Numbered from the stretch's first letter, positions 447-37,780 are shown. The stretch is 64,000 bases of DNA from a virus (IMGVR_UViG_3300028171_000090:32001-96000); one strand, 5' to 3'. Numbers and translations are program-made. Notes: a model not told the origin generated them from the letters alone.

Positions 447-482
447 CGAAAAAGACAGAGATAGAGAACTAGTCTCTATCTC
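447..482 (-). terminator. Intrinsic terminator
   Basis: 10-bp stem GAGATAGAGA/TCTCTATCTC with T-tract on minus strand, overlapping the stop of 469..894. Confidence 0.75.
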
Positions 483-894
483 CATTACTTTTATTACTAT
501 CTTCCCTATCTTGACGTTTCTTAGGCTTATTCTCATTCTCTTCATCGTATTGCTTCTTTTCTTGTTTTAATTCTTCTTCATCCAGTGGAATGCTAAAGTT
601 CTTGAGATTGAATAATAGTAGCTTTGCGACGACGTTTAACGTATATCTACCAAAATATGCGCCCAATCCAGTGGCAACAATGCATGTTTTGATGTCGTCT
701 ATCAAAGTGGTAAGCATTATACCTAAGAAAACTCCGATAAGTGTAGATATAAGCGCTTCCGAGATATAGTACACGGTGACCTTTGGGTCTTCAGACTCTA
801 AGTCAGTGGCGTACCGATTTAAGCTTACTATGGATGATGTTAACAAGCTTACTGAAATCATCAGAAGGATATCTATTGTGAATAGTTTTTCCAC
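469..894 (-). CDS. Membrane protein, holin-like (2-3 TM segments, charged C-tail)
   Basis: Hydrophobic segments then EEELKQEKKQYDEENENKPKKRQDRE tail; GGAGGTGA RBS before GTG. Confidence 0.6.
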   Translation of the reverse strand: MEKLFTIDILLMISVSLLTSSIVSLNRYATDLESEDPKVTVYYISEALISTLIGVFLGIMLTTLIDDIKTCIVATGLGAYFGRYTLNVVAKLLLFNLKNFSIPLDEEELKQEKKQYDEENENKPKKRQDREDSNKSNGDRD

Positions 895-1351
895 TCACAT
901 CACCTCCCCTTTTAGCGAAGCGATTCTTACGTCTGTTGTTTAACAAGATTAAGCAAGAACAAATCAGAAGGAAAGATAATAATAATATGAACGACAGCAT
1001 AAGTAATACCATCGATTCTAACTTGTGAGTGGTTTCCTGGATATTATCTACGTATCCAAGTATCGCAAATTCGACTTCATTCGCCGACATGAGATCATAA
1101 TCGGTTGTTTCCGCATGTGCAACTAGAACTCCAGACTTAACAGGGACTGGTACACGATATGTGTCATACATCTCGCTGCGCGCTTGGAAATCGATCTCTT
1201 CAAATGAAGTTTGTAAATTCTCAGTTCTATCTTTTAGTTCACTGAAATATACGGAACTTCCAATCCCGAGTAACAGTGCACTACCAAACAAAATAAAACT
1301 AAGAATGACCACAGCTTTGCTCTTGAAGAACTTGTTACTTTTACGAATCAT
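803..1351 (-). CDS. Two-TM membrane protein with central soluble loop (possible antiholin/holin partner)
   Basis: TM segments VVILSFILFGSALLLGIG and VLLMLSFILLLSFLLICSCLILL; GAGGAGG RBS; overlaps next gene by 92 nt. Confidence 0.6.
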   Translation of the reverse strand: MIRKSNKFFKSKAVVILSFILFGSALLLGIGSSVYFSELKDRTENLQTSFEEIDFQARSEMYDTYRVPVPVKSGVLVAHAETTDYDLMSANEVEFAILGYVDNIQETTHKLESMVLLMLSFILLLSFLLICSCLILLNNRRKNRFAKRGGDVSGKTIHNRYPSDDFSKLVNIIHSKLKSVRH

Positions 1352-1400: not shown

Positions 1401-1435
1401 GAAATAAAACGAGTGTAGGCTCTATGCCTACACTC
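1401..1435 (-). terminator. Intrinsic terminator ending the rSAM accessory unit
   Basis: GAGTGTAGGC-N5-GCCTACACTC stem then GTTTTATTTC. Confidence 0.75.
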
Positions 1436-1443
1436 ATTATGTG

Positions 1444-1731
1444 TTATTTCTTTTTCTTCTTGTTCCATGTAAGATGGATTTTCTTTTCATTGAAATCCAT
1501 GTTCCAATCTGGAGCATCAAGAACGATATCAATTTCAGGAGCTACTTTATTAATAATAGCTTCACTTGTTTCTGTAAATTTGTTATGCGCAGCATAATAG
1601 CGAGCCATAACTTCGTCATGCATTACCTTGTTATTGATAAGCTCCATAAGAGCCGATTTTTCGTTGAATGCATCCTGTAATGCTTTTACATCTTTTGGGT
1701 CTACTTCAAAAATTTTAGTTTGAATTGCCAT
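1444..1731 (-). CDS. CXXX-repeat peptide modification system accessory protein (TIGR04116-like), copy 2
   Basis: 95 aa; V.P.D...LQ..F.E...L.EL at N-end and W.MDF....I.L at C-end match my recollection of the family; adjacent to rSAM. Confidence 0.6.
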   Translation of the reverse strand: MAIQTKIFEVDPKDVKALQDAFNEKSALMELINNKVMHDEVMARYYAAHNKFTETSEAIINKVAPEIDIVLDAPDWNMDFNEKKIHLTWNKKKKK

Positions 1732-1755
1732 TGTAATTCCTCCTCTATATGGTTA

Positions 1756-1767
1756 TAATAAATTGTT
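1756..1767 (-). promoter_or_regulatory. Putative late promoter AACA-N6-TA
   Basis: AACAATTTATTA upstream of 1731. Confidence 0.55.
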
Positions 1768-1770
1768 TCC

Positions 1771-2142
1771 CTATTGATATTCTACAATAAGAGAATTAGT
1801 TAGGAAATCTACTTTAATTTCATACGTTGTACCAGAAATAAGCTCTGCGTCTTCTTTCGGCATATATTTTTCCATCAATACTTGGAATACAAGATTATAT
1901 TCTGCGAAAGATTTAATATATTGATCGAGAATCTGGTTATAGCGTTCTTCGTCAGGTTTAAATGGTGATGTACTTGTAAACTGTGTACATAACGCTAGTA
2001 AACCATCCTTTTCATAAAGAACCCTTTGCACTACTGATGAATCCTCATACTCTAATGGGTAGGTAATTTTCTTCTTCCCATCTTCACAACATTCGTGTTT
2101 TTCTGTATCGTCATCATAACGAACTCTACATCCACATGCCAT
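1771..2142 (-). CDS. CXXX-repeat system accessory protein (TIGR04116-like), copy 1, with extra Cys-containing N-terminus
   Basis: Paralog of 1444..1731 (helical hairpin, C-terminal IKVDF...LIV); N-terminal CGC...ECC. Confidence 0.55.
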   Translation of the reverse strand: MACGCRVRYDDDTEKHECCEDGKKKITYPLEYEDSSVVQRVLYEKDGLLALCTQFTSTSPFKPDEERYNQILDQYIKSFAEYNLVFQVLMEKYMPKEDAELISGTTYEIKVDFLTNSLIVEYQ

Positions 2143-2164
2143 GATAATTCCTCCTCATTGTATA

Positions 2165-3502
2165 TTAGTCGATAGTTGGAATACCTTTACCTTGTGTGAT
2201 GAATTCGATTTCATCCGCAGTTAGGTTACATTCGAAGAAGTCGTCTTTACCTAACTTCTTGTAAAGTTTATTCCAGTAGTAATAGTTCGCAAGAACACGA
2301 ACTTTGTGCATCATACAAGTAAATGTTGCACGAATATTAGAAGAACCAAATACATCGTAGTTATGAGCTGTACACCAGCCACAGCCACTTGTTACTTGGC
2401 AGTTAAAGCACTTGTCAGTTGATTGAGAACGACGAGTGATACCGAATAGTTCTTCTACTAATGGATCGTCTTTAATGTCAATCATACCGTCATCAACGTT
2501 ACCGATAATGATTTCACGACGTTCCTTGTTTTCCATTGAATAGCTCATGAAGCGTAGGCAAGGATATAGTTTACCATCACAACCGATAGTTAACATCTTA
2601 CCATCTCCACCACACCAGTTATCATTTTCTTCTTCTTTCATCGGTTTCCCAATAGATTCTTCAAAGATACTGATAACGGCTGATTTGTAGTATCCACTTT
2701 CTAGATACCAGTCAGCTAGTTTAATTAACTGATCATAGAATACGAAAGCATCTTTTGGCTTCCATACGTTTTCAAATACTGCATTGGCATTGATTTCACG
2801 TAATCCCATTTCGAATAAATGTGGAATTGCTGTTGTGATTTTATCAATGTTTTCTGGAGCAAAGGTAACTTTAGTAGAAGATAGACCGTGTTCTGCAATT
2901 GCATTCTTCACGTTACGTTCTACGATATCATAACTACCTTTACCATTAGCGAATACACGACAAGAGTCATGTAAATCTTTGTTTCCATCAATTGTGATAG
3001 ATACAGAGATACGACCTTGGTTCTTTTCAATGAAACGTTTTACACGTTTTGTATGGTTTAGTGTACCGTTAGTTGATACACTGATCATATAGTTTAATGC
3101 CCAAGGTGAGTTTTCCATTGTAGCTTTAAAGCGGAAGTAATCCACGATAAAGTCCATTACGTCAACGTTCATGAATGGTTCTCCACCGATGAAGTCTAAG
3201 ATTACAGCTTTGTGAATCTTATCGTTAACGAAGTTTTTATTACGTTCTGTGTCAAATAATAAGTCTACTGCTTTACGAGCAACTTCTTTTGACATGAACT
3301 TTCTATTTTTACCTACTTGGTAACAGTATGTGCAACGTAAGTTACACTCTTCCGTCATAACGAAAGTAAGGTTCTTTGTAGCTAAATCTTTTTCCGAATA
3401 CTTTTCCAAGTTTTCAGGTGTATCTACATCATACATCGTTCCAAACGTATCTTGGAATTCAGATGTGGTTTTAACGTATGTCTGTTCTACAGAGCATCCC
3501 AT
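2165..3502 (-). CDS. Radical SAM/SPASM peptide maturase, CXXX-repeat target type (TIGR04115-like)
   Basis: CNLRCTYC (CxxxCxxC), DFIGGEPF, SVSTNGT, SPASM cysteines WCGG..YPC..CFNCQVTSGCGWC..TC. Confidence 0.93.
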   Translation of the reverse strand: MGCSVEQTYVKTTSEFQDTFGTMYDVDTPENLEKYSEKDLATKNLTFVMTEECNLRCTYCYQVGKNRKFMSKEVARKAVDLLFDTERNKNFVNDKIHKAVILDFIGGEPFMNVDVMDFIVDYFRFKATMENSPWALNYMISVSTNGTLNHTKRVKRFIEKNQGRISVSITIDGNKDLHDSCRVFANGKGSYDIVERNVKNAIAEHGLSSTKVTFAPENIDKITTAIPHLFEMGLREINANAVFENVWKPKDAFVFYDQLIKLADWYLESGYYKSAVISIFEESIGKPMKEEENDNWCGGDGKMLTIGCDGKLYPCLRFMSYSMENKERREIIIGNVDDGMIDIKDDPLVEELFGITRRSQSTDKCFNCQVTSGCGWCTAHNYDVFGSSNIRATFTCMMHKVRVLANYYYWNKLYKKLGKDDFFECNLTADEIEFITQGKGIPTID

Positions 3503-3527
3503 TAATTATTCCCCCTTTTGACTGTAA

Positions 3528-3539
3528 TATTAGTATGTT
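3528..3539 (-). promoter_or_regulatory. Putative late promoter AACA-N6-TA for the rSAM gene
   Basis: AACATACTAATA between upstream terminator and rSAM RBS. Confidence 0.6.
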
Positions 3540-3544
3540 GCACA

Positions 3545-3583
3545 TAATAAGAAATGACAGGATAAGCCGAAGCTTATCCCATC
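3545..3583 (-). terminator. Intrinsic terminator (UUCG loop)
   Basis: Minus strand GATGGGATAAGC-TTCG-GCTTATCCTGTC then ATTTCTTATT. Confidence 0.75.
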
Positions 3584-3588
3584 TTGTT

Positions 3589-4131
3589 TTAGAATACTAA
3601 ATATTCCTCTTCAGGCACTTCACCTTCAAAGGCATTTCCATTTTCTCTATCAATCATAGATTCCGTCACATTGTGACGTTCAAAGAAGTCAGCACACTCT
3701 ACAACAGTTTCCATGTCGTTTTGAGGCTGAGCCAGCATTAATAGAGTGTGGTAGAAGATACCCATATATTCTGGTTTAATACCTTTATCCTTCGATTCAT
3801 TAATCATACGTTTTGTATTCTCAATGTCACTCTTACGGAAGTAGTATTTAATTTGGAAATGAGTTACCCCAAATGCTGCAACGTCAGGTGTATCTGCAAA
3901 CCATTTATTGATGTTAGATGTTACGATACGGAAGATATCAGCGATATTATTCTCATACTGGAATACACCCCCATCTAACATTAATCGTAAGCTATCATTT
4001 ACAAGAGGGAAGTCCTCCAATGTTTTCTCTAACATTTCTAAGTTCTTTTCTTGTAAATACTTTGTAATTAATGCATTCTTAATTAATTTTTTTGTCGCAT
4101 TAATTTCATAAGGTTTTTTGTTTTCTTCCAT
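3589..4131 (-). CDS. Hypothetical all-helical protein downstream of the Cys-rich protein
   Basis: 180 aa ORF with RBS, co-oriented in operon. Confidence 0.7.
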   Translation of the reverse strand: MEENKKPYEINATKKLIKNALITKYLQEKNLEMLEKTLEDFPLVNDSLRLMLDGGVFQYENNIADIFRIVTSNINKWFADTPDVAAFGVTHFQIKYYFRKSDIENTKRMINESKDKGIKPEYMGIFYHTLLMLAQPQNDMETVVECADFFERHNVTESMIDRENGNAFEGEVPEEEYLVF

Positions 4132-4148
4132 GGAATATCATTCCTTTC

Positions 4149-5591
4149 TTAGAATTTAGCGATTCCGCTACTTCCTACATTGTATACTGGTCTAGAGTAG
4201 TTAACGCTCATTGCTGTACCTGAGCAAGAACCTGTACAACTTGTACATCCTGAAGAACATGCTCCAGAACATCCACCTGTACATCCGCCAGAACAAGAGC
4301 TACCACAACCACCAGAACAATCACTACCACAAGTTGAAGAACAAGACGTGCTACAGCCTGTACTACATGTACCCACACAACCACCAGTACATGAGCTTAC
4401 GCAGCTACCTGTACATGATGATGTACATCCTGTACTACATCCGCCAGTACATCCACTGTTACATGCTGTTGAACAACCTGAAGCACAGTTACCGGCACAC
4501 CCTGTAGAACATGTGCTTGCACAGTTACCTGTACATGAACCAGTACATCCGCCAGTACAGTTTGTCGCACAACCTCCAGAGCACGTTCCTGTACATCCAC
4601 CAGAACAAGATGATCCACATCCGCCTGTACATGTACTACCACAAGAACTTGTACAATAAGCGGAACATCCTCCAGAACAAGAACCTCCACAGCCACCTGT
4701 ACAAGCTGAGTGACATGCTCCAGTACATACGCCAGAACCACAAGCAGAACCACAGTTACCGTGACATGTTCCACCACAGTCACCTTGACATGTGTTATTA
4801 CATGAAGAACCACAACCAGTACATCCACCGGAACAACCTGAGGAACAAGAACCACCGCAACCACCGATACAGCTTGTTGAACATCCCGCAGAACATCCAC
4901 TTACGCAACCTGTTGCACATCCTCCGCCACATGTACCTGAGCATGTTCCTGAACATCCACCTGTACATGTTGATTGACATCCACCAGCACAGCCAGTTGA
5001 ACATCCACCTGAGCACGTTCCAGAACATGAAGAACATCCACTAGAACAGTTACCAGAACATCCAGAAGAACAGTCAGCCGCACAGTTTGCAGAACAGCTA
5101 CCAGAACATCCGCCTGAACATCCACCAGAACAGTTACCTGTACAAGATGAGCTACAGCTAGTAGAACACCCACCAGAACAACTTCCTGAACATCCACCAG
5201 TACATGAGCTTGTACAACCAGTAGCACAGCCACCGCCACATGTACCTGAACAAGAACCTACGCACCCACCAACGCATGATGTACTACATAAACCAGTACA
5301 TGCACCGTTACATGAGTTACCGCCGTCTTGCTTCGAGTTTTTCAATTTATACGTAGTCGCTGCCATTTCATCCACTTCAACCATTTCTGCTTGATCTTTT
5401 GCTAATGGTTTATCGAAGTGTTTGACTTGGTCAATCGCGTCCGCCATTTCATCATAATGAACATCTTCTACAAGTTCACTTGATGTAGCTTCAGGTTTAT
5501 AGTTAGGGACTGTATTTGTTCTACTACGTCTTCCTAACTCCTGCATGACGCTCAATTTCAGTTCTCTGAAATCCTCATCAGAAATAAACAT
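4149..5591 (-). CDS. Giant Cys-rich CXXX-repeat protein (likely rSAM substrate): 93-aa leader + 92 Cys units + 21-aa tail
   Basis: Counted 92 cysteines from residue 94 to 459, nearly all CXXX with G/S/T/A fillers; starts CNGACTGLCSTSC; GAGGAGGG RBS. Confidence 0.9.
   Translation of the reverse strand: MFISDEDFRELKLSVMQELGRRSRTNTVPNYKPEATSSELVEDVHYDEMADAIDQVKHFDKPLAKDQAEMVEVDEMAATTYKLKNSKQDGGNSCNGACTGLCSTSCVGGCVGSCSGTCGGGCATGCTSSCTGGCSGSCSGGCSTSCSSSCTGNCSGGCSGGCSGSCSANCAADCSSGCSGNCSSGCSSCSGTCSGGCSTGCAGGCQSTCTGGCSGTCSGTCGGGCATGCVSGCSAGCSTSCIGGCGGSCSSGCSGGCTGCGSSCNNTCQGDCGGTCHGNCGSACGSGVCTGACHSACTGGCGGSCSGGCSAYCTSSCGSTCTGGCGSSCSGGCTGTCSGGCATNCTGGCTGSCTGNCASTCSTGCAGNCASGCSTACNSGCTGGCSTGCTSSCTGSCVSSCTGGCVGTCSTGCSTSCSSTCGSDCSGGCGSSCSGGCTGGCSGACSSGCTSCTGSCSGTAMSVNYSRPVYNVGSSGIAKF
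4215..5312 (-). repeat. Degenerate 12-nt coding tandem repeat (CXXX x92)
   Basis: Recurring ACA/GCA every 12 nt on plus strand; register breaks at 3 CXX units and 1 CXXXX unit. Confidence 0.9.
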
Positions 5592-5621
5592 GTAATTCCC
5601 TCCTCTTCGTATATGCTAAGT

Positions 5622-6848
5622 CTATTTTTGTCGTCTATGGTATACACCAATGCCGACAGGTGTTACTTGTATATAGTCAACGGATAATTTGTAAGCAGGC
5701 GATGTATTAACAGTGTTAACTTCAATACGAAGCACGTCATTATAAGAACGTTCCCCTGTATATTCACACCCTACAAATATCGTTGTATATAGGTCTTTTG
5801 TATTTAACTCTTTTGGAGCAAATGCTACTCGACCAATTTCTTCTACCGTGATATTCGTTCCCATGGTAGTATTAATATATTGCTGAGGCATCTTCAGTTT
5901 CTTTATGGATATGTATATATCCTGAGTCGTTACAGCAATATCAGAAACTTTTAAACGTACGCCAATAGAATATACCCCAAACTTCATTGGCTTTGTATAA
6001 CATACAGCATAGTTTGTAATTGCTTTACCGTTTGTTGCAAGAGGGTCATCAACAATATGTTTCCCGTTGTAATAGTCATCACCTGGGAAGTATTCTGATA
6101 CACCTCTGTACACTGGACGATAATCCTCTACTAAGTAATCTGGAACTTGATAAATTTGAACTTCCGTAATGATATACTTAGCCGCAGTTTTACGCCCTTG
6201 ACCTAATTGTAATATAGGTCGAATAAAATTAGTTTTAGCCCATTCTTTTAATGTATTCGTAGTGTAGTTATTCTCATAAGCAAAGTTATCTTTGTCATTA
6301 TATACACCAGAGATTTCGAATGGTTGATTTGGTTTTACAAGTGTTGTACCTAACACTTGCGAAGTCTTTCCGTTAAAGTCTTGTGCTGATTGTGTCATTG
6401 CTTGATCTTTAAAGAAATCAACACGTAGACCGCAAGTACCTTCACCTTCTAAACAGAAGCCTTTGACTTTAAAATAGTATTCCGTTGTCCGTGATACAGA
6501 CAGCGGTATGTTTAGTGGTACTGACATAGCTGAAGTTCCAGCCATATCGATTTGTGTACCTTTCCCTTTTTCTAATGCGTCAACCCATTTGGTTGTCACA
6601 TCTGTAGGAGTTGATACATAACGTACCCAATCACCATGACCCAAAAGTAAATGCGGGTTTTGGAATGGGTATCGGCTAATCATTTCATTAATACGGTTTT
6701 CATTTTCTACTGTTTTTGATAAGTTCTTATTATTTGATCTTACGTAGAAATGACCAGTGTTACGGTCAACCATGAATTCGCCATTCTTTGCATTTGCATT
6801 CATAGAAATTGGCATAGGTATAAATCCAAACCGTGGTTCATTAGCCAT
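5622..6848 (-). CDS. Putative tail/baseplate-associated protein with beta-rich, carbohydrate-binding-like domains
   Basis: 408 aa, beta/aromatic-rich; N-terminus GEFMVDRNTGHFYV resembles GEILRDGKGHFYT of 1..400; function inferred from context. Confidence 0.55.
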   Translation of the reverse strand: MANEPRFGFIPMPISMNANAKNGEFMVDRNTGHFYVRSNNKNLSKTVENENRINEMISRYPFQNPHLLLGHGDWVRYVSTPTDVTTKWVDALEKGKGTQIDMAGTSAMSVPLNIPLSVSRTTEYYFKVKGFCLEGEGTCGLRVDFFKDQAMTQSAQDFNGKTSQVLGTTLVKPNQPFEISGVYNDKDNFAYENNYTTNTLKEWAKTNFIRPILQLGQGRKTAAKYIITEVQIYQVPDYLVEDYRPVYRGVSEYFPGDDYYNGKHIVDDPLATNGKAITNYAVCYTKPMKFGVYSIGVRLKVSDIAVTTQDIYISIKKLKMPQQYINTTMGTNITVEEIGRVAFAPKELNTKDLYTTIFVGCEYTGERSYNDVLRIEVNTVNTSPAYKLSVDYIQVTPVGIGVYHRRQK

Positions 6849-6874
6849 AGAGCTTCACCTCCATAATTTAATCT

Positions 6875-6886
6875 TAATTAGTTGTT
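6875..6886 (-). promoter_or_regulatory. Putative late promoter AACA-N6-TA (408-aa gene, Cys-rich gene, 180-aa gene)
   Basis: AACAACTAATTA upstream of 6848. Confidence 0.6.
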
Positions 6887-6941: not shown

Positions 6942-9620
6942 TTAACGTTGTTTCATTGCTTCCGCCATTACAGATAAGTCTAATACAATAACGTTGTTAT
7001 TAAAGACATCTTTATACTTTTCATATAAATCTGGCGGAATGTTTGCTAAGTCAAATGATGGTAATGTTTCGAAATCTGTTAGGATTTGATAGTATTCATC
7101 ACCGACTGTAAGGAATTCCTCACCATCATGTTTCATTTCAGCATCTAATGGCATGTAACGAGTTTGTGACTGTTCCATATCCACGTAGATAATATTTTCA
7201 GGTTTAGTAAGTAATCCACTATACTTGAATGATACATATTTCGGCATTTCTTGAGAACTATCTACGACGTTATGCTTCAGATACTCACGATATAAGTCAT
7301 AGTACATATCAATCATACCAACCATTTCTGGTCCTGTAACATCAGGCTCATCATCTTTAATCTTCTCACCAATCATGAGAGATTTTAGATACACATCGTA
7401 TAAGTCTGGTCCTACATTATAGTTAGGAGAAAACTCCGATACTAATGCAAAACTAGAACGATTTAGATACGTATTAAAATGCTTACGTGAATTTACACTC
7501 CATAACTGTAATCCGTTATTGGTAGGAATCTCATGATAACGGTGAGAGATTCTTCTACCATTTAGATAAAATGTCATAATATTATCATTGAATGGAGCTT
7601 CTATTGTGCCTTTATTTGGTCGTACACGCCCATACTCTTCTACTAATTTCTCGTCATAAATAGCTTTCTGGCAAAATGGTAAAAATTCTATATAAATAAC
7701 TTCACCAATTGTAAAAGCTGCATCAATAGTAAATTTAGGTGTAGTTAAATCATTCATTAAGGTTGGGAATTCAACCGACCAACTATAGTGAGGTAACGTG
7801 CGACCATTTTTATAAATGCGATAATTTTCTTTATCATGTGTAAGATATGCCATCTCAAGTGTCCCATCCACTACTGCACGAGTAGTTTTACCTGGTACAA
7901 CGTATCGAGTAAAGACATTACAGAATGTGTTTACACATTTAAGAATAATCTTATCTGGAAATGTTTGAATTAACATACCATCTGTGCGTTCAGGATATGC
8001 GTAAATCGAATATCCTGAAAACGGATAATATCTTTTCTTAGTTGCATTATACATAAATAATTTAATATAATCCGTATCAAGAAAATCTTTATCCCCTATT
8101 ACGAATGCTTTGACATTAGCAGGGACAGTAACATCTCGTACTGCTACTGTACTATTCATACGCATCATTTCGAATTCGATAATAGATTTTACATTCACTC
8201 TTGATGAACGAATGTATACTAAAGTTTCATCATTCTGATGATAAATCAATGGCTCATCATCACGAATACCATCCACAAATACATTGAATCCAAAGCTTTC
8301 TGGATTTGGGATATTGATAAGAAAATACTGTTGGTCAAAATCTTTGAGCATTGCTGTATCCCATACATCAGAACGGTTATTCATTCGAAGTGCTTTATTG
8401 TAGTCCATTTTAGAAACATCTGCGAACTTGGACTCTGTAATTCTTGTTTTATCTTGTACCGTATCAATGTATTTATTATAGAATTCATAATCATAATTTG
8501 TTATTTCTTTTAGTTTCTTTGCTCGCCACTCAGTGTCATTTAGTTTTGAATCTACTAAATTTTGAGCACTAGTATCGACATTAGATAGAGAAAATTTCGT
8601 GATATATTCTGGAACTTTGTTTCCATCTAAGTCTGCAACGAGGTCTTTTCCATGGTCGGTATCGTACCATAAAACATGGTCCCGATAATCATGGACGTCA
8701 CCAGGCTGTTCCTCGTAGAATATCATAGCAAAGGCTTTGTCTACAGGAAGCGGGTCAATACGAAATACATCAGACGTAATCGCTGTTACACCTAAGTCCG
8801 TATATAAACCATTTGCGAATATCATAACGTTCTCAATATGTACTGGGAACTTATATTCACGTTTACCTTTCACCTTCCGTTGTAAACGGAAATGTTTCGT
8901 ACCTTTTGTTAAAGTTTGAGTCTGTTTCAATGTCGGCATACAGGTTATTTCTATAAGTTTACCAATAGCCGCATTGACGGTAATAACAAACTCATTGCCT
9001 ACTTTGCGGGCGGTAAAATCTGTTGTAAATAAACCATCCACATAACAGAACCAACCAAAGTTTTCAGCATAAGGATGATCCACCATGCTCAGTTTAAATA
9101 CGTTAGTAGTCTTAGACTGTAAGTCTAAGTAATAGTTTCGACGAATAATATGCATCGTTGTAAATACTTCGTATTTATACGGAACACATAAAATTGTGTG
9201 GAAATCTGTAAATACAATTTGGATATCACTAACTGGTATCTTTTTACCATTATGATACATATCAAATGTATACTCGTAGTATTTATTAAATTCACTCAAT
9301 GGAATCAATTGATACTTATCGAATTTGTGTAATAATACATCTTCTTGCGTCTGTTTACGTTCAAACTCTTCTACAAGCTCTAAACCTTGGCAGACAATAA
9401 AGAAGTGGGTAAATGGTTTCCAGTAATAATGTTCTTTATGTTTCACTTGCTCTTTAATCTGGAATCCGTTTTTCTTTACTTCATAGACATCCATACCAAC
9501 ACGTGCATCCTGCACGGTTGATAGGAGACTATAACTGTAATTCATAATAAACTCTTTAACTGTTTCATCTAAAGCTTCTTTACGAATTTGAGCTTTTCGT
9601 TCTCGGGTTAAAAGTTCCAT
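6942..9620 (-). CDS. Large putative virion structural (baseplate-region) protein
   Basis: 892 aa, beta/aromatic-rich, in leftward late module; no catalytic motif seen. Confidence 0.65.
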   Translation of the reverse strand: MELLTRERKAQIRKEALDETVKEFIMNYSYSLLSTVQDARVGMDVYEVKKNGFQIKEQVKHKEHYYWKPFTHFFIVCQGLELVEEFERKQTQEDVLLHKFDKYQLIPLSEFNKYYEYTFDMYHNGKKIPVSDIQIVFTDFHTILCVPYKYEVFTTMHIIRRNYYLDLQSKTTNVFKLSMVDHPYAENFGWFCYVDGLFTTDFTARKVGNEFVITVNAAIGKLIEITCMPTLKQTQTLTKGTKHFRLQRKVKGKREYKFPVHIENVMIFANGLYTDLGVTAITSDVFRIDPLPVDKAFAMIFYEEQPGDVHDYRDHVLWYDTDHGKDLVADLDGNKVPEYITKFSLSNVDTSAQNLVDSKLNDTEWRAKKLKEITNYDYEFYNKYIDTVQDKTRITESKFADVSKMDYNKALRMNNRSDVWDTAMLKDFDQQYFLINIPNPESFGFNVFVDGIRDDEPLIYHQNDETLVYIRSSRVNVKSIIEFEMMRMNSTVAVRDVTVPANVKAFVIGDKDFLDTDYIKLFMYNATKKRYYPFSGYSIYAYPERTDGMLIQTFPDKIILKCVNTFCNVFTRYVVPGKTTRAVVDGTLEMAYLTHDKENYRIYKNGRTLPHYSWSVEFPTLMNDLTTPKFTIDAAFTIGEVIYIEFLPFCQKAIYDEKLVEEYGRVRPNKGTIEAPFNDNIMTFYLNGRRISHRYHEIPTNNGLQLWSVNSRKHFNTYLNRSSFALVSEFSPNYNVGPDLYDVYLKSLMIGEKIKDDEPDVTGPEMVGMIDMYYDLYREYLKHNVVDSSQEMPKYVSFKYSGLLTKPENIIYVDMEQSQTRYMPLDAEMKHDGEEFLTVGDEYYQILTDFETLPSFDLANIPPDLYEKYKDVFNNNVIVLDLSVMAEAMKQR

Positions 9621-9630
9621 ACTAAACCTC

Positions 9631-10596
9631 CTATTGGCTAATAGAGCTAAAGAACGTTCTATACAGTTTATCGATGTCAGCGTCTAACGTATTTTCGATT
9701 ACGTTCTGAACGTTTGTGTATGATCCGATAACAACTGCAAATAAGTTATGGTAGAATGTCGGTAAAAATTCTAGGCTTAGCATCATTGCGGCACCGTAAG
9801 AATTCACGTAGTTATCGACAAATTGTCGAGTTGTTAACTCTCCCATTCCACCTACATTCTCAGCTACAAATTTAATGAATGCATCTAAGTCTTTAAAATG
9901 TTCCTCTGGTTTAATATTACGGTCAATATCATTTACTAGTAATACACCAGATGATTTACAGTTACCGATTGCAAACTTCTTATTCATTTCTTGCATACTT
10001 GGAGAACGGCGTCCCATTACATTATATAAGAAGTAGTACGAAGTCAGATACATTACGATATCTTGACGTTCACGGTTAATACTGATAGAGAACATGCGGT
10101 TGAAAATCTTCAAGCATAGCTTACTAAACATAGATGAAGATAATTGTTGCACTTCAGCTCTCATTGAGATAGCACGATAGTTCTCGTAGCAGCTAATTAA
10201 AGTAGCTCCACATTGTAATAGATAGAATAAATTCTTCGTATCCATTTTAATTTCATTTTCTTTTCCATATGTAGCATGGTTTGAAATGTTTACTACACAT
10301 ACGATTGCTTTACCTGTATTAGCAAGGTAGCAAGGGATAGTCGTTGGAAGGCGATATTGTTTCGCATTCATAACTAACTTAATCTTTCCTTTACGTAAGC
10401 AATCTAATACGAAGTTTTTAGAAGAGTAGTGATAACGACGGTCTATTTCACCGATCATATCTTTGATTTCTGGACGGGCATCCGTAATCAATTCACCTTC
10501 TGTCAGAATACGCATCATCGTTTTTTGTAATTCGATTTGTTTGTCGTATAACTTGAATATATACGTATCAGATATACTTTTTAGCTTGTCAGACAT
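9631..10596 (-). CDS. Hypothetical late protein
   Basis: 321 aa, RBS, late motif at 10623-10634. Confidence 0.7.
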   Translation of the reverse strand: MSDKLKSISDTYIFKLYDKQIELQKTMMRILTEGELITDARPEIKDMIGEIDRRYHYSSKNFVLDCLRKGKIKLVMNAKQYRLPTTIPCYLANTGKAIVCVVNISNHATYGKENEIKMDTKNLFYLLQCGATLISCYENYRAISMRAEVQQLSSSMFSKLCLKIFNRMFSISINRERQDIVMYLTSYYFLYNVMGRRSPSMQEMNKKFAIGNCKSSGVLLVNDIDRNIKPEEHFKDLDAFIKFVAENVGGMGELTTRQFVDNYVNSYGAAMMLSLEFLPTFYHNLFAVVIGSYTNVQNVIENTLDADIDKLYRTFFSSISQ

Positions 10597-10622
10597 AGTA
10601 GCCCCTTCTTTCTATAATAATT

Positions 10623-10634
10623 TAATAAGTTGTT
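10623..10634 (-). promoter_or_regulatory. Putative late promoter AACA-N6-TA
   Basis: AACAACTTATTA. Confidence 0.6.
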
Positions 10635-10638
10635 AAAA

Positions 10639-10657
10639 TATATATTATTTTAATGGA
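10639..10657 (+). promoter_or_regulatory. Putative early promoter (variant)
   Basis: TATATATTATTTTAATGGA; core of the recurrent TATAYATTAT motif. Confidence 0.45.
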
Positions 10658-34748: not shown

Positions 34749-34767
34749 TATATATTATATAGGTGAG
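34749..34767 (+). promoter_or_regulatory. Putative early promoter
   Basis: TATATATTATATAGGTGAG. Confidence 0.75.
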
Positions 34768-34799
34768 AAACCAATACATTATATAAGGGAGAGTTTTGA

Positions 34800-35489
34800 A
34801 TGAGAAACTTAGCAGATACTTTAAAAATTAGTGAACCAGGAGTTCACGTAATAGCAGGAGCAGTAGGTGACAGATTAACAACGTCTGCCCTACACCTTGC
34901 ATTGGAAATGGCATCTAAATTAGAGCATAAAGAAGGACAGAAACGTCCAGCAATTATCCTATTTACAAGAGACTTAGGAGCACACGACTTCATGAAGTAT
35001 GTATCAGACGAAGGTCAATACCCTAATGTATTGAACCGTATACATGAAAAGAATGTCGATATGTTATTCTTTAATACATATGATAGAGTATTAAAAGATT
35101 TAGAGTATGAAATCTTAAACGCGGCAAATACGTATGATATTAAAGCAATCATAACAGATGCGATTGTTTCCCTACGAGGAGAAGAAGAATCACGAGCATT
35201 GTTAGATACAATTGTATTTGCACATTCAATGAGAAAGCAATTTGATATACCTGTTACGATAGGTGTACGTATTAACTTAGCACAAGCTAAAACATTGATT
35301 CATGTACATGATGAGATTCGTAGTATTGGTAAGATACCTCATAACTACGATGTAGATACAGCTCTACGATTCATGTCTCATCATGAGTTACTAGATATTC
35401 ATTTTAGTAAATCGAATGAATTAGGTGGACAGCCACCATTAACAATCAATACAAATAAAGAATTCACATTTACAGCGGAGGAGTTTTAA
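34800..35489 (+). CDS. Degenerate DnaB/RecA-fold protein 1 (no Walker A Lys)
   Basis: PGVHVIAGAVGDRLTT, RPAIILFT, IKAIITD, DIPVTIG align to DnaB at 12704. Confidence 0.7.
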   Translation: MRNLADTLKISEPGVHVIAGAVGDRLTTSALHLALEMASKLEHKEGQKRPAIILFTRDLGAHDFMKYVSDEGQYPNVLNRIHEKNVDMLFFNTYDRVLKDLEYEILNAANTYDIKAIITDAIVSLRGEEESRALLDTIVFAHSMRKQFDIPVTIGVRINLAQAKTLIHVHDEIRSIGKIPHNYDVDTALRFMSHHELLDIHFSKSNELGGQPPLTINTNKEFTFTAEEF

Positions 35490-35490
35490 T

Positions 35491-36120
35491 ATGCAAATCA
35501 CATTAACGAACTATCCAAAAATATTCTTTGATACACCTGGGTTACATGTAATAGTGGCTCATACTACAAACAAAGAAAATGTAGAAAAATTTATGATAAA
35601 TGTGGCAGCACAATTCCTAAACATGCATGTTACACCTGACGATAAACCGTTTACTGTAGTAGGTCCTATGTACCATAATTGGGAAGATCGTTTAAATAAA
35701 TTAGGACAAGAGAATCGATTCATGTATGATCGTTTTATGGAATCCTACAATCCATTCGCTTCAGTTAAGTCTGATTTTATCAGTCAGTCTGAAGAACCTG
35801 GTGTAACAAATTATCGTGCAGGAGTAGCAAATGCTTTTATGAGTTTGACACACGGTAACAACTGGGGTATGCAAACAAGTGAGGATGCTCTTGACCGTCT
35901 GCATGAGATGGCAATGAAGCATAATATCCCACTTGTACTACCAGCGCTTATTGATCCAACAGTATTGGATATTACGAGTAAATCATTCTTAAAGAAATAT
36001 GAGAGTGTATTATTAATGCCAAGACCCAAAGATAATTTCCATCCAATCATGCCGTTCTACCATAAGACATTGACCGAAGGTGAAATGTTATATATTAATA
36101 CGGCTGAATACTTATTTTAA
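35491..36120 (+). CDS. Degenerate DnaB/RecA-fold protein 2
   Basis: PGLHVIVAH, LHEMAMKHNIPLVL. Confidence 0.6.
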   Translation: MQITLTNYPKIFFDTPGLHVIVAHTTNKENVEKFMINVAAQFLNMHVTPDDKPFTVVGPMYHNWEDRLNKLGQENRFMYDRFMESYNPFASVKSDFISQSEEPGVTNYRAGVANAFMSLTHGNNWGMQTSEDALDRLHEMAMKHNIPLVLPALIDPTVLDITSKSFLKKYESVLLMPRPKDNFHPIMPFYHKTLTEGEMLYINTAEYLF

Positions 36121-36126
36121 TTACTA

Positions 36127-36161
36127 TAACCCTAGCAGATAGCTAGGGTTACTTTTATTTG
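36127..36161 (+). terminator. Intrinsic terminator
   Basis: TAACCCTAGC-N5-GCTAGGGTTA plus T-tract. Confidence 0.8.
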
Positions 36162-36174
36162 AGGGGGATTTATT

Positions 36175-36648
36175 ATGTTAAAAGTTTCAAGATTTCATAA
36201 TACAAATTGTGTTATCGGTGGTGATAAGATTGAAGGTCTTATGGCAATAAAAAGCGACATCGGCATGTTTGATACGTACGCTGCTTTATTGCGAGATATT
36301 TTAGAATCGAATCCTGATGTTAAAGCAGACGAGGGTAAAATACCTCTGATACTAATTGTAACAGATGGTGAATTTACTAGATTATATGAAACTAGAACTC
36401 ATATTCATATTAAGACAATCATTGCAGACTTCTCAGCAGATATTAAATATATCGACTATATCAACGAAGTATTAACGACTGTGGAAGAGTATAAGAATTA
36501 CCAATTGATTAGCGTATTTATGGATGCACAGATGGCTGATATCGATGACTGTTTAGATATTCGACAAGAATATCCAGACATTCCAATCCTAGTAACAAAT
36601 TCAAGATATATAACAGAGGAGGATATAAAGAATGCTCAAAATAAATAA
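36175..36648 (+). CDS. Degenerate, shortened DnaB-fold protein 3
   Basis: EGKIPLILIVT, YQLISVFMD, DIPILVTN. Confidence 0.6.
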   Translation: MLKVSRFHNTNCVIGGDKIEGLMAIKSDIGMFDTYAALLRDILESNPDVKADEGKIPLILIVTDGEFTRLYETRTHIHIKTIIADFSADIKYIDYINEVLTTVEEYKNYQLISVFMDAQMADIDDCLDIRQEYPDIPILVTNSRYITEEDIKNAQNK

Positions 36649-37084
36649 TGTTTATTTACAAGAAACTTTCTTTAAAGGTGAAAAAGAAGTGGATGGATTA
36701 TTCCTAATGGAGCAATTCTTATTCCATGAAGATATATTATCTATTGCTGATGACATCATCAAGTCGAATAGAGAAGTGAAAGTAGATGAGGGTAAAATAC
36801 CTTTACTATTAGTTATCGTACAAGATGACGAAGATGAAATATTAGAAATGATTCACGAGGATGAACCTATTCATGTGAAGACTATTCGTTCAAAGGTAAC
36901 CCCTCTTGATGTAGATAAATACAGTGAGCAAATCACAGAAGCAATGCAAAAAGATGAATTTAAATTATATCAATTAATCGGTATCCTTATCGACGATATG
37001 ATGATTGACTTCGAAGATTGTGTTGATATATCTAGTGTATTTGAATATCTGCCAATCATGGTTGCAGATTCAGCATTACTATAA
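36632..37084 (+). CDS. Degenerate, shortened DnaB-fold protein 4 (close paralog of 3)
   Basis: EGKIPLLLVIV, YQLIGILID, LPIMVA. Confidence 0.6.
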   Translation: MLKINNVYLQETFFKGEKEVDGLFLMEQFLFHEDILSIADDIIKSNREVKVDEGKIPLLLVIVQDDEDEILEMIHEDEPIHVKTIRSKVTPLDVDKYSEQITEAMQKDEFKLYQLIGILIDDMMIDFEDCVDISSVFEYLPIMVADSALL

Positions 37085-37114
37085 AACTAAATTATATTAA
37101 GGGAGAGAATAATA

Positions 37115-37780
37115 ATGAAAACAATGATAAAAGCATATAACGTACCAGGAGCACATTTAGTAGTTACGACAGGTGACTATTTGGCATTACATTCATATCT
37201 TACAAATATTGCAATGGGATTTATGACCGTAGCAAATAGAGAACATAATGTCGATGAAACTGTTATTTATTTTAATTCTAACAGAACGTGGGATCAGATA
37301 TTAGTATCTGCTGCCATGCATGACTTATCGAATGCTAGTCACTTTGCAAATAGAATAAAAGGTAAGAAAGATGTATTTGCTACAAGTGACCTATTCGTAC
37401 ACGATGACCCGATTAATATTATTTCAGGTAAATACCCTGGAGAGAAGAAACAGCATATCCGAGCTATCATTATCGACTTAAAAGTAATTGACGCTGCATG
37501 TATATCGACTACAAAAATTAAACGTCTTGTTGATTATGCATGGCAATTACAGGTTCCTGTAATTATCGGTATGGATTGTATAGACTATCCTTTAACTCCA
37601 TATGATATTAAGAATGATAAATGGGATAGTTCTCTTAAATCAGAGTTCTTATCTATTCTTGAAGATGTACAGTCACTTCATCATGTATTACATAATATGG
37701 ATACCCATGATGTTCATGTATATAAGAACCGAGCATTTAATTTAGATATCCACCATTTAGAAGATGCACTATACGTTTAA
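37115..37780 (+). CDS. Degenerate DnaB/RecA-fold protein 5
   Basis: PGAHLVVTT, VIYFNS, IRAIIID, AWQLQVPVIIG. Confidence 0.6.
   Translation: MKTMIKAYNVPGAHLVVTTGDYLALHSYLTNIAMGFMTVANREHNVDETVIYFNSNRTWDQILVSAAMHDLSNASHFANRIKGKKDVFATSDLFVHDDPINIISGKYPGEKKQHIRAIIIDLKVIDAACISTTKIKRLVDYAWQLQVPVIIGMDCIDYPLTPYDIKNDKWDSSLKSEFLSILEDVQSLHHVLHNMDTHDVHVYKNRAFNLDIHHLEDALYV

Follow-up and report, generated by a model that had tools for sequence, protein, structure and literature searches.

The locus described here lies within a window of 64,000 nucleotides (the whole stretch of DNA that was analysed) from a virus which, by its sequence, is a giant soil phage distantly related to the Bacillus phages PBS1 and AR9; its RNA polymerase beta subunit has 40% identity to that of AR9/PBS1. 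The block is headed by a homologue of a virion protein, and a complete CXXX-repeat radical-SAM (rSAM) system is found within it (Table 1). The open reading frames of this system were located on the minus strand where they had been predicted, namely an rSAM enzyme of 445 aa at 2165..3502, a Cys-repeat protein of 480 aa with 92 Cys at 4149..5591, a 180-aa partner and two small accessory proteins. The original prediction had also called the neighbouring genes tail/baseplate-like. This stands for the 321-aa gene, whose product is homologous to an AR9 virion protein, and for the 408-aa protein, which has one domain in common with tail-fibre proteins, but not for the 892-, 1019- and 271-aa flanking proteins, for which similarity searches gave no relatives except in a sister phage. 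Two membrane proteins with a late-type motif of their own are also encoded, the 141-aa one having a weak holin match (phrog_6384, E 2.8e-4), and their membership of the CXXX system is uncertain. Since AR9 and PBS1, the nearest cultured relatives, are absent among the phage matches of the rSAM enzyme, the module is, on these matches, not core to this type of phage.

Table 1. Features of the block; positions are counted from the first nucleotide of the window.
Feature	Position	Strand	Evidence or remark
Early promoter consensus, exact AR9 type, AAATATATATTAT	10636..10648	+	20 nt upstream of divergent exonuclease/DNA-metabolism operon; consensus from PMC5312081
Late-type motif AACAACTTATTA	10623..10634	-	38 nt upstream of 321-aa gene
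321-aa homologue of AR9 gp280/PBS1 virion structural protein, first gene of block	9631..10596	-	phrog_21032 E 1.7e-29; tblastn to AR9/PBS1 E 8e-19; AR9 annotation
892-aa orphan, position of AR9 gp279	6942..9620	-	Similarity searches without match
Late-type motif AACAACTAATTA	6875..6886	-	38 nt upstream of 408-aa gene
408-aa fibre-like protein; C-terminal beta-sandwich of ~115 aa (residues ~285-401) is the CXXX-linked domain	5622..6848	-	
Cys protein, N-terminal conserved domain (residues 1-93), two conserved helices	5313..5591	-	Profile of 48 other N-domains, E 1.6e-8; alignment; model
Cys protein, CXXX repeat core (residues 94-456), 92 Cys, four register breaks	4224..5312	-	
Cys protein, C-terminal tail (24 residues) and stop codon	4149..4223	-	
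180-aa partner, lineage-specific orphan, predicted all-alpha TPR-like solenoid	3589..4131	-	Atlas model
Hairpin terminator, 12 bp stem and T-run, 3' of 180-aa gene, ends first transcription unit	3556..3583	-	
Late-type motif AACATACTAATA	3528..3539	-	37 nt upstream of rSAM gene
rSAM/SPASM maturase, TIGR04115 family	2165..3502	-	TIGR04115 score; Pfam
123-aa accessory protein, divergent TIGR04116-family member	1771..2142	-	Small-protein profile
Late-type motif AACAATTTATTA	1756..1767	-	36 nt upstream of 95-aa gene
95-aa accessory protein, more divergent paralogue, TIGR04116 family	1444..1731	-	Small-protein profile
Hairpin terminator, 13 bp stem, ends rSAM/accessory unit	1408..1438	-	
Two membrane proteins (182 aa; 141 aa)	469..1351	-	Own late-type motif 1389-1400

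The rSAM enzyme matched TIGR04115 with 434.4 bits against a cut-off of 350, over model positions 1-359 of 359, which bears out its predicted place in a CXXX-repeat system, and Pfam matches to Radical_SAM, Fer4_12 and SPASM were also obtained. The CX3CX2C motif is formed by C53, C57 and C60, invariant in the alignment of relatives, and seven SPASM cysteines (C297, C315, C365, C368, C374, C377 and C396) are invariant in the same alignment. Other families scored below their cut-offs: NF047865 (PapB), the second best, with 205.6 bits against 340, TIGR03974 (SCIFF maturase/CteB) with 110.8 bits against 425 and TIGR03906 (QhpD) with 116.7 bits, far below. The best solved relative is CteB (PDB 5WGG, E 8e-26), and the alignment runs from CteB residue 77 onwards. 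As it begins past the N-terminal substrate-recognition region of CteB, the phage enzyme is read as having no N-terminal peptide-recognition domain, and recognition would have to come in trans.

The 92 cysteines of the Cys protein lie between residues 94 and 456, and the spacing from one to the next is exactly 4 in 87 of 91 cases, the remaining four being 3, 3, 5 and 3. The repeat core consists of 27% G, 25% C, 23% S and 12% T, and its repeats are degenerate at the DNA level. The sister phage keeps 92/92 Cys and every register break. An assignment to TIGR04114 holds only in part. The whole protein scored 8.1 bits, under the cut-off of 20, and seven repeat matches, of 5.5-11 bits each, also stayed below threshold, but Cys at every fourth residue is evident; two relatives, L014 and L009, scored 21.3 and 17.1 bits with the same model. 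The gene lies on the same strand as the rSAM gene, 650 nt upstream of it, with 17-90 nt from other genes. No evident signal peptide was seen in the N-terminal sequence.

The 180-aa partner gave 2 matches among 1.84 billion representatives and is unrelated to the proteins found in the partner slot at other loci. Its Atlas model (pTM 0.85; TM ~0.5 to TPR proteins) indicates that it is probably all-helical. In a direct search with TIGR04116 (cut-off 50 bits), neither of the two small accessory proteins was matched, even at E 10. On the other hand, a profile built from 62 small proteins encoded beside rSAM genes, from which the copies in the window were left out, matched the 123-aa protein at E 7e-17 and the 95-aa protein at E 3e-9, in agreement with the prediction that the two are paralogs. 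Bacterial members of the same small-protein cluster exceeded the TIGR04116 cut-off in 5/8 cases tested, and relatives of the 95-aa protein are present at L132:7255-7530 and L095:6468-6743. Thus, their description as TIGR04116-type proteins fails on direct model matching but holds through homology by the intermediate profile and through their position adjoining the rSAM gene.

In AR9, late promoters with the consensus AACA-N6-TA/G are read by the non-virion RNA polymerase, and the early consensus also occurs in divergent arrangement (PMC5312081). The AR9-type late motif was found 36-49 nt upstream of every transcription unit in the block, including the reported copies at 6875, 3528 and 1756 (starting at 6886, 3539 and 1767 on the minus strand), and further minus-strand copies of AACA-N6-TA start at 10634, 1400 and 438. 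On the 125-kb contig 35 of 91 copies are intergenic, although intergenic DNA makes up 8.4%; composition-matched permuted patterns, used as control, gave 6-21 intergenic among 108-160 copies, so that the enrichment exceeds chance. The exact early consensus serves the divergent DNA-metabolism operon only, with no unit of the block having one, and it marks the block boundary. Elsewhere on the contig the late motif also precedes genes of virion structural proteins. However, it is not exclusive to these, and because it also stands ahead of the DnaB and RNase H genes, late expression of the block can be given only as likely from the motifs. The Cys gene had been described as having no promoter of its own. 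It is separated from the 408-aa gene upstream by 30 nt that contain no such motif, an arrangement for co-transcription, and the motif ahead of the 408-aa gene is the predicted promoter of a unit comprising the 408-aa, Cys and 180-aa genes. The layout resembles the late units of AR9/PBS1 in consensus, motif-to-gene spacing, related RNA polymerase subunits and divergent early consensus, but AR9/PBS1 are absent among the phage matches of the rSAM enzyme, and the units here are predicted from sequence. The block was also found in contigs from 21 soil RNA-seq runs, and steps in RNA-library depth at ~1400 and ~10606 match the predicted unit boundaries; the library data are contigs, which give cover and depth, and they include a 116-kb piece spanning the block, so that DNA carry-over is possible.

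The connection of this system with tail fibres comes from the 408-aa protein and from the survey of related loci. The protein itself has no tail-fibre PHROG or Pfam match, and the part shared with other proteins is its C-domain only. This C-domain was found in 41 other proteins, at the extreme C-terminus in 41/41, and all 41 are encoded immediately upstream of a CXXX gene. The N-terminal parts of the carriers tested match tail-fibre PHROGs, and matches of this kind were also given by CXXX-upstream proteins in other loci, for example L097 (E 1.7e-17). The model of the C-domain has a middling likeness to CBM/lectin jelly-rolls (Z 7-9), while the Atlas leads of the 408-aa protein to Mtd_N and CBM_4_9 score < 0.9. 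Among 163 phage and prophage loci fetched via rSAM relatives, 126 have a same-strand CXXX protein nearby, and many phages have the module in a region of tail-fibre genes. In prophage L022 a baseplate-wedge gene (E 2e-49) comes first and is followed by the fibre, CXXX, partner, small-protein, rSAM, holin and endolysin genes. The conserved domain of ~100 aa that forms the N-terminus of the Cys protein, a putative recognition domain, is present in 93 of 158 CXXX proteins of these loci, at either end of the repeats depending on the locus, for which a role in recognition by the maturase would fit better than fixed attachment. Cys counts range from 17 to 145 across phages, and the repeats are fused to a ~200-aa extension and the conserved domain in L125 and to a ~240-aa extension in L168. 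In bacterial members of the system the CXXX proteins are either short, at 54-130 aa, or precursors with a Tat signal. No published account of a phage CXXX-rSAM module was found in the literature.

On its family assignment, what the phage carries is a CXXX-repeat radical-SAM maturation system of bona fide TIGR04115 type. We propose, with a probability of about 0.55, that it is expressed late and that the Cys protein is cross-linked by the enzyme into a thioether ladder, which is used in a host-contact structure together with the 408-aa protein. Late in infection, the non-virion RNA polymerase of the phage would transcribe two adjoining units, the first giving the 408-aa fibre-like protein, the 480-aa Cys-repeat protein and the helical 180-aa partner, and the second giving the rSAM/SPASM enzyme and the two TIGR04116-type proteins. 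In the reducing cytoplasm, the enzyme, without a recognition domain of its own, may be guided by the accessory protein(s), in the role of adaptors, to the ~93-residue N-terminal domain of the Cys protein and may then proceed along the 92 CXXX units. By analogy with CteB, PapB and QhpD, each Cys thiol would most likely be linked as a thioether to a neighbouring carbon of the backbone or of a side chain, and the Gly/Ser/Thr-rich chain would become a redox-insensitive ladder of small rings. The matured protein is probably a part of the tail fibre, contributing structurally to the host-contact apparatus along with the 408-aa protein and its lectin-like C-domain. The original prediction of a virion fibre or scaffold made by RiPP chemistry is consistent with the TIGR04115 system, the virion-protein homologue at the head of the block, the late motifs and the CXXX-linked fibre C-domain.

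In comparison to the CXXX system of NCBIfam/TIGRFAMs (TIGR04115, TIGR04116 and the TIGR04114/04117 targets), the phage system is alike in rSAM score, in Cys at every fourth residue and in small-protein homology, and its genes share a strand and fit within 4 kb. It differs in its target, which is not a short peptide but a protein of 480 aa that includes a folded domain of ~93 aa (TIGR04114 8 bits vs 20), in having two accessory proteins unmatched by TIGR04116 directly, in the added lineage-specific helical partner, and in its setting in a lytic jumbo phage, under late-type promoters and beside a fibre-like protein. No published biochemistry of the CXXX-repeat family (TIGR04114-04117) was found in the literature. 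Among characterised enzymes, PapB forms one thioether per C-X3 unit of the freyrasin ranthipeptide, six in PapA, and needs a carboxylate acceptor, CXXXD (PMC12373016). The PapB/PapA pair shares the rSAM/SPASM enzyme and the repeated C-X3 substrate, but its substrate has 6 units as against 92 and is a short precursor of a secreted peptide, and its family score lies below cut-off. Moreover, there are 3 Asp and no Glu among the 363 residues of the phage core, and PapB acceptor chemistry therefore cannot apply. CteB is alike as a SPASM enzyme that forms Cys thioethers and as the closest solved structure. In the QhpC/QhpD system, rSAM thioether cross-links are placed within a structural protein subunit, not an antibiotic, and QhpD, the quinohemoprotein amine dehydrogenase maturase, thus provides a precedent for such cross-links in a structural subunit. 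Both CteB and QhpD differ in that the scores are far under their family cut-offs and that their substrates are unrelated to the Cys protein.

The gene order would also suit a helper of fibre assembly. Genes for tail-fibre assembly and chaperones commonly sit directly after the fibre gene, which is the spot taken by the Cys gene here, and genes of the Cys type are always directly downstream of the fibre C-domain gene. The Cys protein, modified or else held unmodified by the 180-aa partner, would then be a transient scaffold, ruler or chaperone which folds or trimerises the 408-aa fibre and is not kept in the particle. The proteins of the partner slot vary, a tendency that specificity-matched chaperones also show, and the proteome papers on SPN3US make no mention of the corresponding genes, which adds little since proteins that are Cys-rich and cross-linked easily escape detection. 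However, a transient helper would hardly merit the cost of 363 repeat residues, 92 conserved Cys and an enzyme of its own, some phages have the repeats joined to larger multi-domain proteins, and the wide range of Cys counts is what is expected of a length-variable structural element, which makes an assembly role unlikely.

A product released at lysis is a rather poor prospect. The enzyme family belongs to the RiPP maturases, the bacterial precursors resemble those of classical secreted products, the conserved domain is leader- or follower-like at either repeat end and the prophage modules border the lysis cassette; all of this would suit a matured chain, either entire or freed of the N-domain by a protease of the host, which benefits the phage or lysogen through bacteriocin-like, signalling or metal-chelating action outside the particle. 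Against this stand the length of the Cys protein, its N-terminus with no evident signal peptide, the lytic jumbo phage with a virion-protein homologue heading the block, the predicted co-transcription with a lectin-like fibre protein and the strict linkage of the fibre C-domain to CXXX genes. Further, profile searches (TIGRFAM/Pfam/PHROG) of the block gave no peptidase/protease or exporter/transporter family such as is typical of antibiotic RiPP clusters, and this agrees with particle building rather than antibiotics in the original prediction, of which the term 'metal-loaded' remains a guess. Phage fibres are known to hold metal sites, and such sites, the extreme Cys density with small neighbouring residues and the absence of PapB-type acceptor residues could point to repeats that bind metals or Fe-S clusters (metallothionein-like or as axial sites in a trimeric fibre), with the rSAM enzyme making a different or limited modification or needing the array as cluster donor, but C-X3-C over 92 units with a TIGR04115 maturase and a TIGR04116 adaptor is an enzyme-substrate signature, seen in 126 loci, and all the nearest characterised relatives make Cys thioethers, so that this is very improbable.

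The reading of the Cys protein as a thioether-laddered fibre component may, at somewhat less than even odds, extend to many tailed phages, which would build fibres partly from an rSAM-stitched polypeptide with up to ~100 thioether rings, with the conserved ~100-aa domain as built-in leader, the TIGR04116 proteins as adaptors and the lectin-like C-domain as docking partner. If true, this would add a new type of protein material, cross-linked by an enzyme, and would be the first case of RiPP-type rSAM chemistry serving a virion structural protein. In the sister phage the entire block is kept, with dN/dS values of 0.035-0.12 for all 11 genes, indicating purifying selection.

The CXXX-repeat radical SAM (rSAM) system has so far been a database family with no function assigned, and our data link a large branch of the family with phage tail-fibre modules and with protein-sized substrates. 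The literature search returned no paper on TIGR04115, on 'CXXX repeat' together with radical SAM, or on ranthipeptides in phage tails, and the system is to be regarded as bioinformatically defined and biochemically unstudied. In the window, every ORF listed in the original prediction was recovered on the minus strand. The 445-residue enzyme contains the Pfam domains Radical_SAM, Fer4_12 and SPASM, and its proposed CXXX type was confirmed by profile search, with 434.4 bits against TIGR04115 ('radical SAM peptide maturase, CXXX-repeat target family') at a cut-off of 350. The runner-up families, PapB (205.6 bits) and the nif11-type, QhpD, CcpM and SCIFF maturases, all stayed under their cut-offs, and TIGR04119 gave in the same kind of search only a weak match, to the C-terminal half of the rSAM itself. 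When the window enzyme is aligned with two other phage enzymes, the cysteines of CX3CX2C and seven of SPASM are invariant. CteB (5WGG) was found to be the best solved relative (E 8e-26); CteB is aligned from its residue 77 onwards, and in the window enzyme the rSAM core has only 42 residues ahead of it. The part of CteB which is missing here is its peptide-recognition domain.

The putative substrate is a 480-residue protein with 92 Cys within residues 94-456, whose spacing is exactly 4 in 87 of 91 intervals, the exceptions being 3, 3, 5 and 3. The repeat core consists nearly entirely of G, C, S, T, A and N, with three Asp and no Glu. At the DNA level the array has a self-similarity of only 63-83% over short stretches; the repeat is therefore old and protein-constrained, and neither a recent expansion nor an assembly artefact. 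A conserved domain of ~100 residues, with the approximate consensus LK..VK.EM.RR..GS..Y.G..YDF...P..G....EH..K directly followed by an invariant C-x3-C-(T/S)-G repeat start, was identified in 93 of 158 CXXX proteins, and the N-terminus of the window protein matches a profile of 48 such domains (E 1.6e-8). In an AF2 model of this N-terminal domain, of modest confidence (pLDDT 56), the two conserved motifs are placed on helices 5-23 and 43-56. The domain can also follow the repeats, as it does in a few proteins (at the related locus L023, E 4e-7). Since it co-occurs with the enzyme and the small accessory proteins and not with any one type of fibre, and can stand at either end of the repeats, we read it as a built-in recognition ('leader-like') domain.

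A search with the rSAM alignment gave at least 467 confirmed prokaryote matches and at least 225 in IMG/VR, and 80 loci were taken from each; the prokaryote loci come mostly from Clostridia-type MAGs and isolates. A CXXX protein on the same strand was found close to the rSAM gene in 126 of the 163 loci analysed, and from this family-wide co-occurrence it is very likely that the rSAM acts on the CXXX protein. In the viral and best bacterial loci this protein has ~170-970 residues and 17-145 Cys, and the 92-unit protein of the window is among the longest substrates seen. Bacteria also have short-peptide precursors, and Tat-signal precursors occur in Bacteroidota and Ignavibacteria; both kinds have the look of a separate, secreted branch. 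The precursors of loci L033, L048, L049, L051, L053 and L054 from these two groups open with twin-arginine-type signals (RRxFFK/RRDFL) and not with the phage-type domain, and look like an exported cellular branch of the system.

One link to tail fibres is the gene directly 5' of the CXXX gene. The 408-aa protein of the window has a sole close relative, which is the copy in a sister phage; its C-terminal ~115 residues form a domain that is present in 41 other proteins (166-726 aa, about a dozen lineages) of the loci analysed. In all 41 the domain lies at the extreme C-terminus and the gene stands directly 5' of the CXXX gene, the two being -57 to +34 nt apart. Only this domain of the AF2 model is usable, since the full-length pLDDT is 45 and the domain (pLDDT 70-86) is the sole well-predicted part. 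It is modelled as an eight-stranded β-sandwich resembling carbohydrate-binding modules, lectins and some phage baseplate or fibre domains, with Z of 7-9, which is middling by the calibration of the tool. Proteins encoded upstream of CXXX genes, domain carriers among them, match tail-fibre PHROGs (L097, 1.7e-17; L132, 1.2e-12; L096, 3e-9; L022, ~3e-6). In L022, a PBSX-like prophage, a baseplate wedge gene (2e-49) and a fibre gene are followed by those of the CXXX protein, the partner, a small protein and the rSAM, and then by a holin (1.7e-26) and an endolysin (8e-58) gene; in MT835573, an uncultured phage, the module is flanked by large ORFs which by inspection have the look of baseplate and fibre genes. 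Salmonella phage SPN3US (JN641803; locus L181) has two Cys-repeat ORFs, after gp168 and gp167. One is an unannotated 130-aa ORF between gp167 and gp166 (L181:1567-1959) with 21 Cys and 17 spacings of 4; the next, of 134 aa with 20 Cys, overlaps 'gp166' and starts 73 nt upstream of its annotated start. [quoted passage not shown] A complex prediction for the 408-aa C-terminal domain with the N-terminal domain of the Cys protein, run from our own alignments and without controls, scored 0.00, which speaks neither for nor against binding.

The two small proteins beside the rSAM had been described as accessory paralogs. The curated TIGR04116 model detected neither of them. From the 163 related loci, 84 distinct small ORFs (70-135 aa) directly beside rSAM genes were gathered. 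A single cluster holds 62 of these and, in addition, both window proteins, and a profile of the 62, with the window left out, matched the 123-aa (E 7e-17) and 95-aa (E 3e-9) proteins over their full length. Among eight bacterial cluster members tested, five scored above the TIGR04116 cut-off and the other three matched significantly. The paralogs are thus real, as divergent members of the TIGR04116 family. For the 180-aa partner, an exhaustive search of 1.84 billion representatives gave one true relative (59% identity), whose short contig has the same order of partner, rSAM, small and small, and one dubious match. The Atlas model of the partner is confident (pTM 0.85) and all-helical, with TM ~0.5 to TPR proteins. 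At 47 loci the gene after the CXXX gene encodes a protein of 110-240 aa, and these proteins belong to several unrelated families; phmmer and hhalign gave no relation of the window partner to these other partner-slot proteins (probability <1%), and no PHROG family was matched by them. L132 is the phage whose rSAM is closest (49% identity). Within its CXXX module, at L132:4510-5580, lies a glycosyltransferase (phrog_2170, E 1.9e-10), and the CXXX protein has its repeats first and a domain of ~113 residues last.

The tail or baseplate-like character proposed for the neighbouring genes holds in part. The first gene of the block encodes a 321-aa homologue of the AR9 virion protein gp280, which in AR9 starts a run of virion and tail genes; the 892-, 1019- and 271-aa proteins are orphans. 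When the 892-, 1019- and 408-aa proteins were compared by BLASTP with AR9 gp277-279 and with one another, nothing significant came up; tblastn of the 892-aa protein against phages gave no match, Pfam at E 1 returned only noise for the large neighbours, and the Atlas features of the 1019-aa protein were at chance level (0.81). In the sister phage, represented by Logan contigs of 101 and 197 kb, the same eleven genes are kept in order, with protein identities of 84-98% and dN/dS of 0.035-0.12 in every gene. The rSAM is the most conserved (97.8% identity, dN/dS 0.035), and the Cys protein keeps 92 of 92 Cys and all four register breaks, with core substitutions falling on X positions.

In phage AR9, late promoters read AACA-(6N)-TA/G, the last base being the start, and early promoters read AAATATATATTAT-(6N)-G (PMC5312081). 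AACA-N6-TA was found 91 times on the whole contig, 35 copies lying in the intergenic 8.4%, as against 6-21 intergenic copies among 108-160 for permuted control patterns. Within the block it stands 36-49 nt 5' of the 321-aa, 408-aa, rSAM, 95-aa, 182-aa and 1019-aa genes. None is present ahead of the 180-aa gene (17-nt gap) or in the 30-nt gap between the 408-aa and Cys genes, in agreement with the view that the latter has no promoter of its own. The predicted transcription units are 408 aa > Cys protein > partner; rSAM > 123 aa (> 95 aa); the membrane proteins; and 1019 aa > 271 aa. Copies elsewhere stand ahead of two 'virion structural protein' genes, of RNAP-subunit genes, and of DnaB and RNase H genes as well. 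The late-type motif originally proposed stands, and late expression of the block is therefore likely only. For the early motif only the exact copy was used, as the version with two mismatches showed no overall enrichment (26 matches vs 19.9 expected). Its back-to-back arrangement with a late-type motif suggests that the two-polymerase promoter grammar of AR9 is conserved in a distant soil relative.

Genes and predicted transcription signals of the block (window coordinates)
Feature	Position	Strand	Remark
95-aa small protein	1444-1731	minus	
123-aa small protein	1771-2142	minus	
rSAM	2165-3502	minus	
180-aa partner	3589-4131	minus	
Cys protein	4149-5591	minus	
408-aa protein	5622-6848	minus	
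Strong hairpin terminator	3583-3556	minus	
Strong hairpin terminator	1438-1408	minus	
Strong hairpin terminator	485-455	minus	
Exact AR9 early consensus	10636-10648	plus	20 nt before divergent exonuclease/SbcD/DnaB operon
Late-type motif facing virion block	10634-10623	minus	back-to-back with early consensus, 71-nt divergent intergenic region

The whole block is covered by contigs from RNA libraries. In three runs the depth of adjacent contigs shifts at two predicted unit boundaries, near 1394-1418 and near 10606-10615, and also near 7460-7540, where there is no signal. In X3 and X6, two independent soil RNA libraries, contigs break at ~7460-7540 within the 892-aa gene and the depth drops; no AACA-N6-T(A/T) motif lies near this break, which could come from an internal start so far unrecognised, from processing of the RNA or from the assembly. 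DNA carry-over is possible in the RNA libraries, because in one run (X2) a single 116.6-kb contig spans the block.

As to the chemistry, thioether formation on Cys would be expected by analogy with the nearest characterised relatives, CteB, PapB and QhpD. PapB uses a carboxylate acceptor (PMC12373016), whereas the window repeat core is without such an acceptor, and a carbon of Gly, Ser, Thr or Ala, or something new, would be needed as acceptor here. The small TIGR04116-type proteins may serve as adaptors for the rSAM, since the enzyme is without a recognition domain and they are constantly adjacent to it. No peptidase, protease or exporter family was detected in the block, and this, along with the gene context, the strict linkage to the fibre C-domain and the fusions to larger proteins, argues for a structural role. 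If the product is a thioether-laddered fibre element, RiPP chemistry would reach virus architecture, beyond small secreted peptides; it would explain how fibres could keep rigid and redox-proof outside the cell, and an enzyme-made, sequence-programmable cross-linked polymer would be on offer. The present instance is a good test case because the enzyme clearly belongs to the family, the substrate has 92 units and the operon is well defined by AR9-type promoter and terminator signals, with natural RNA data in addition. Added by this instance are a CXXX member in an AR9/PBS1-like soil phage with readable early/late promoter grammar, one of the longest substrates, the duplicated TIGR04116-type proteins, the lineage-specific helical partner, the 41/41 linkage of a lectin-like fibre C-domain to CXXX genes, the sister-phage selection data and the occurrence in natural RNA libraries.

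The window corresponds to bases 30442-94441 on the reverse strand of a virus contig from IMG/VR, 125 kb long and about half complete by CheckV, with GC of ~35%. Its genes include split RNA polymerase beta-type subunits, a type II topoisomerase, DnaB- and Dda-like helicases and SbcD. An RNAP beta-like protein (58807-60867) has its best similarity, ~40% identity, to Bacillus phages PBS1, AR9, Goe21 and Internexus, and by this match and the gene content the phage is distantly related to the PBS1/AR9 jumbo phages. The module had no megablast match among GenBank phages; near-identical DNA is present in soil DNA runs and 21 soil metatranscriptome runs.

Some minor observations were also made. Interrupted or enlarged rSAM genes were seen in three of the related loci: a second family copy split into two ORFs (L009:8019-9227), a 791-aa version followed by an ORF with, by inspection only, a GIY-YIG endonuclease-like N-terminus (L125:2362-4737), and a match spread over 1665 nt for ~406 residues (L155:8001-9665); introns, inteins or decay are possible causes. 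The 141-aa protein (window 469-894, minus strand), which comes after the 182-aa two-TM protein, has several hydrophobic segments, a highly charged C-terminal tail and a weak holin match (phrog_6384, E 2.8e-4), so that the CXXX module may border lysis genes here, as in PBSX-like prophages. A 732-aa ORF and a 1.7-kb ORF-poor gap are present (window 34749-37780 / beyond the window start). The longest contigs in X2 and X4, two RNA libraries holding the block, measure 192 kb and 243 kb, and if these belong to the same phage, its complete genome is probably recoverable from public data.
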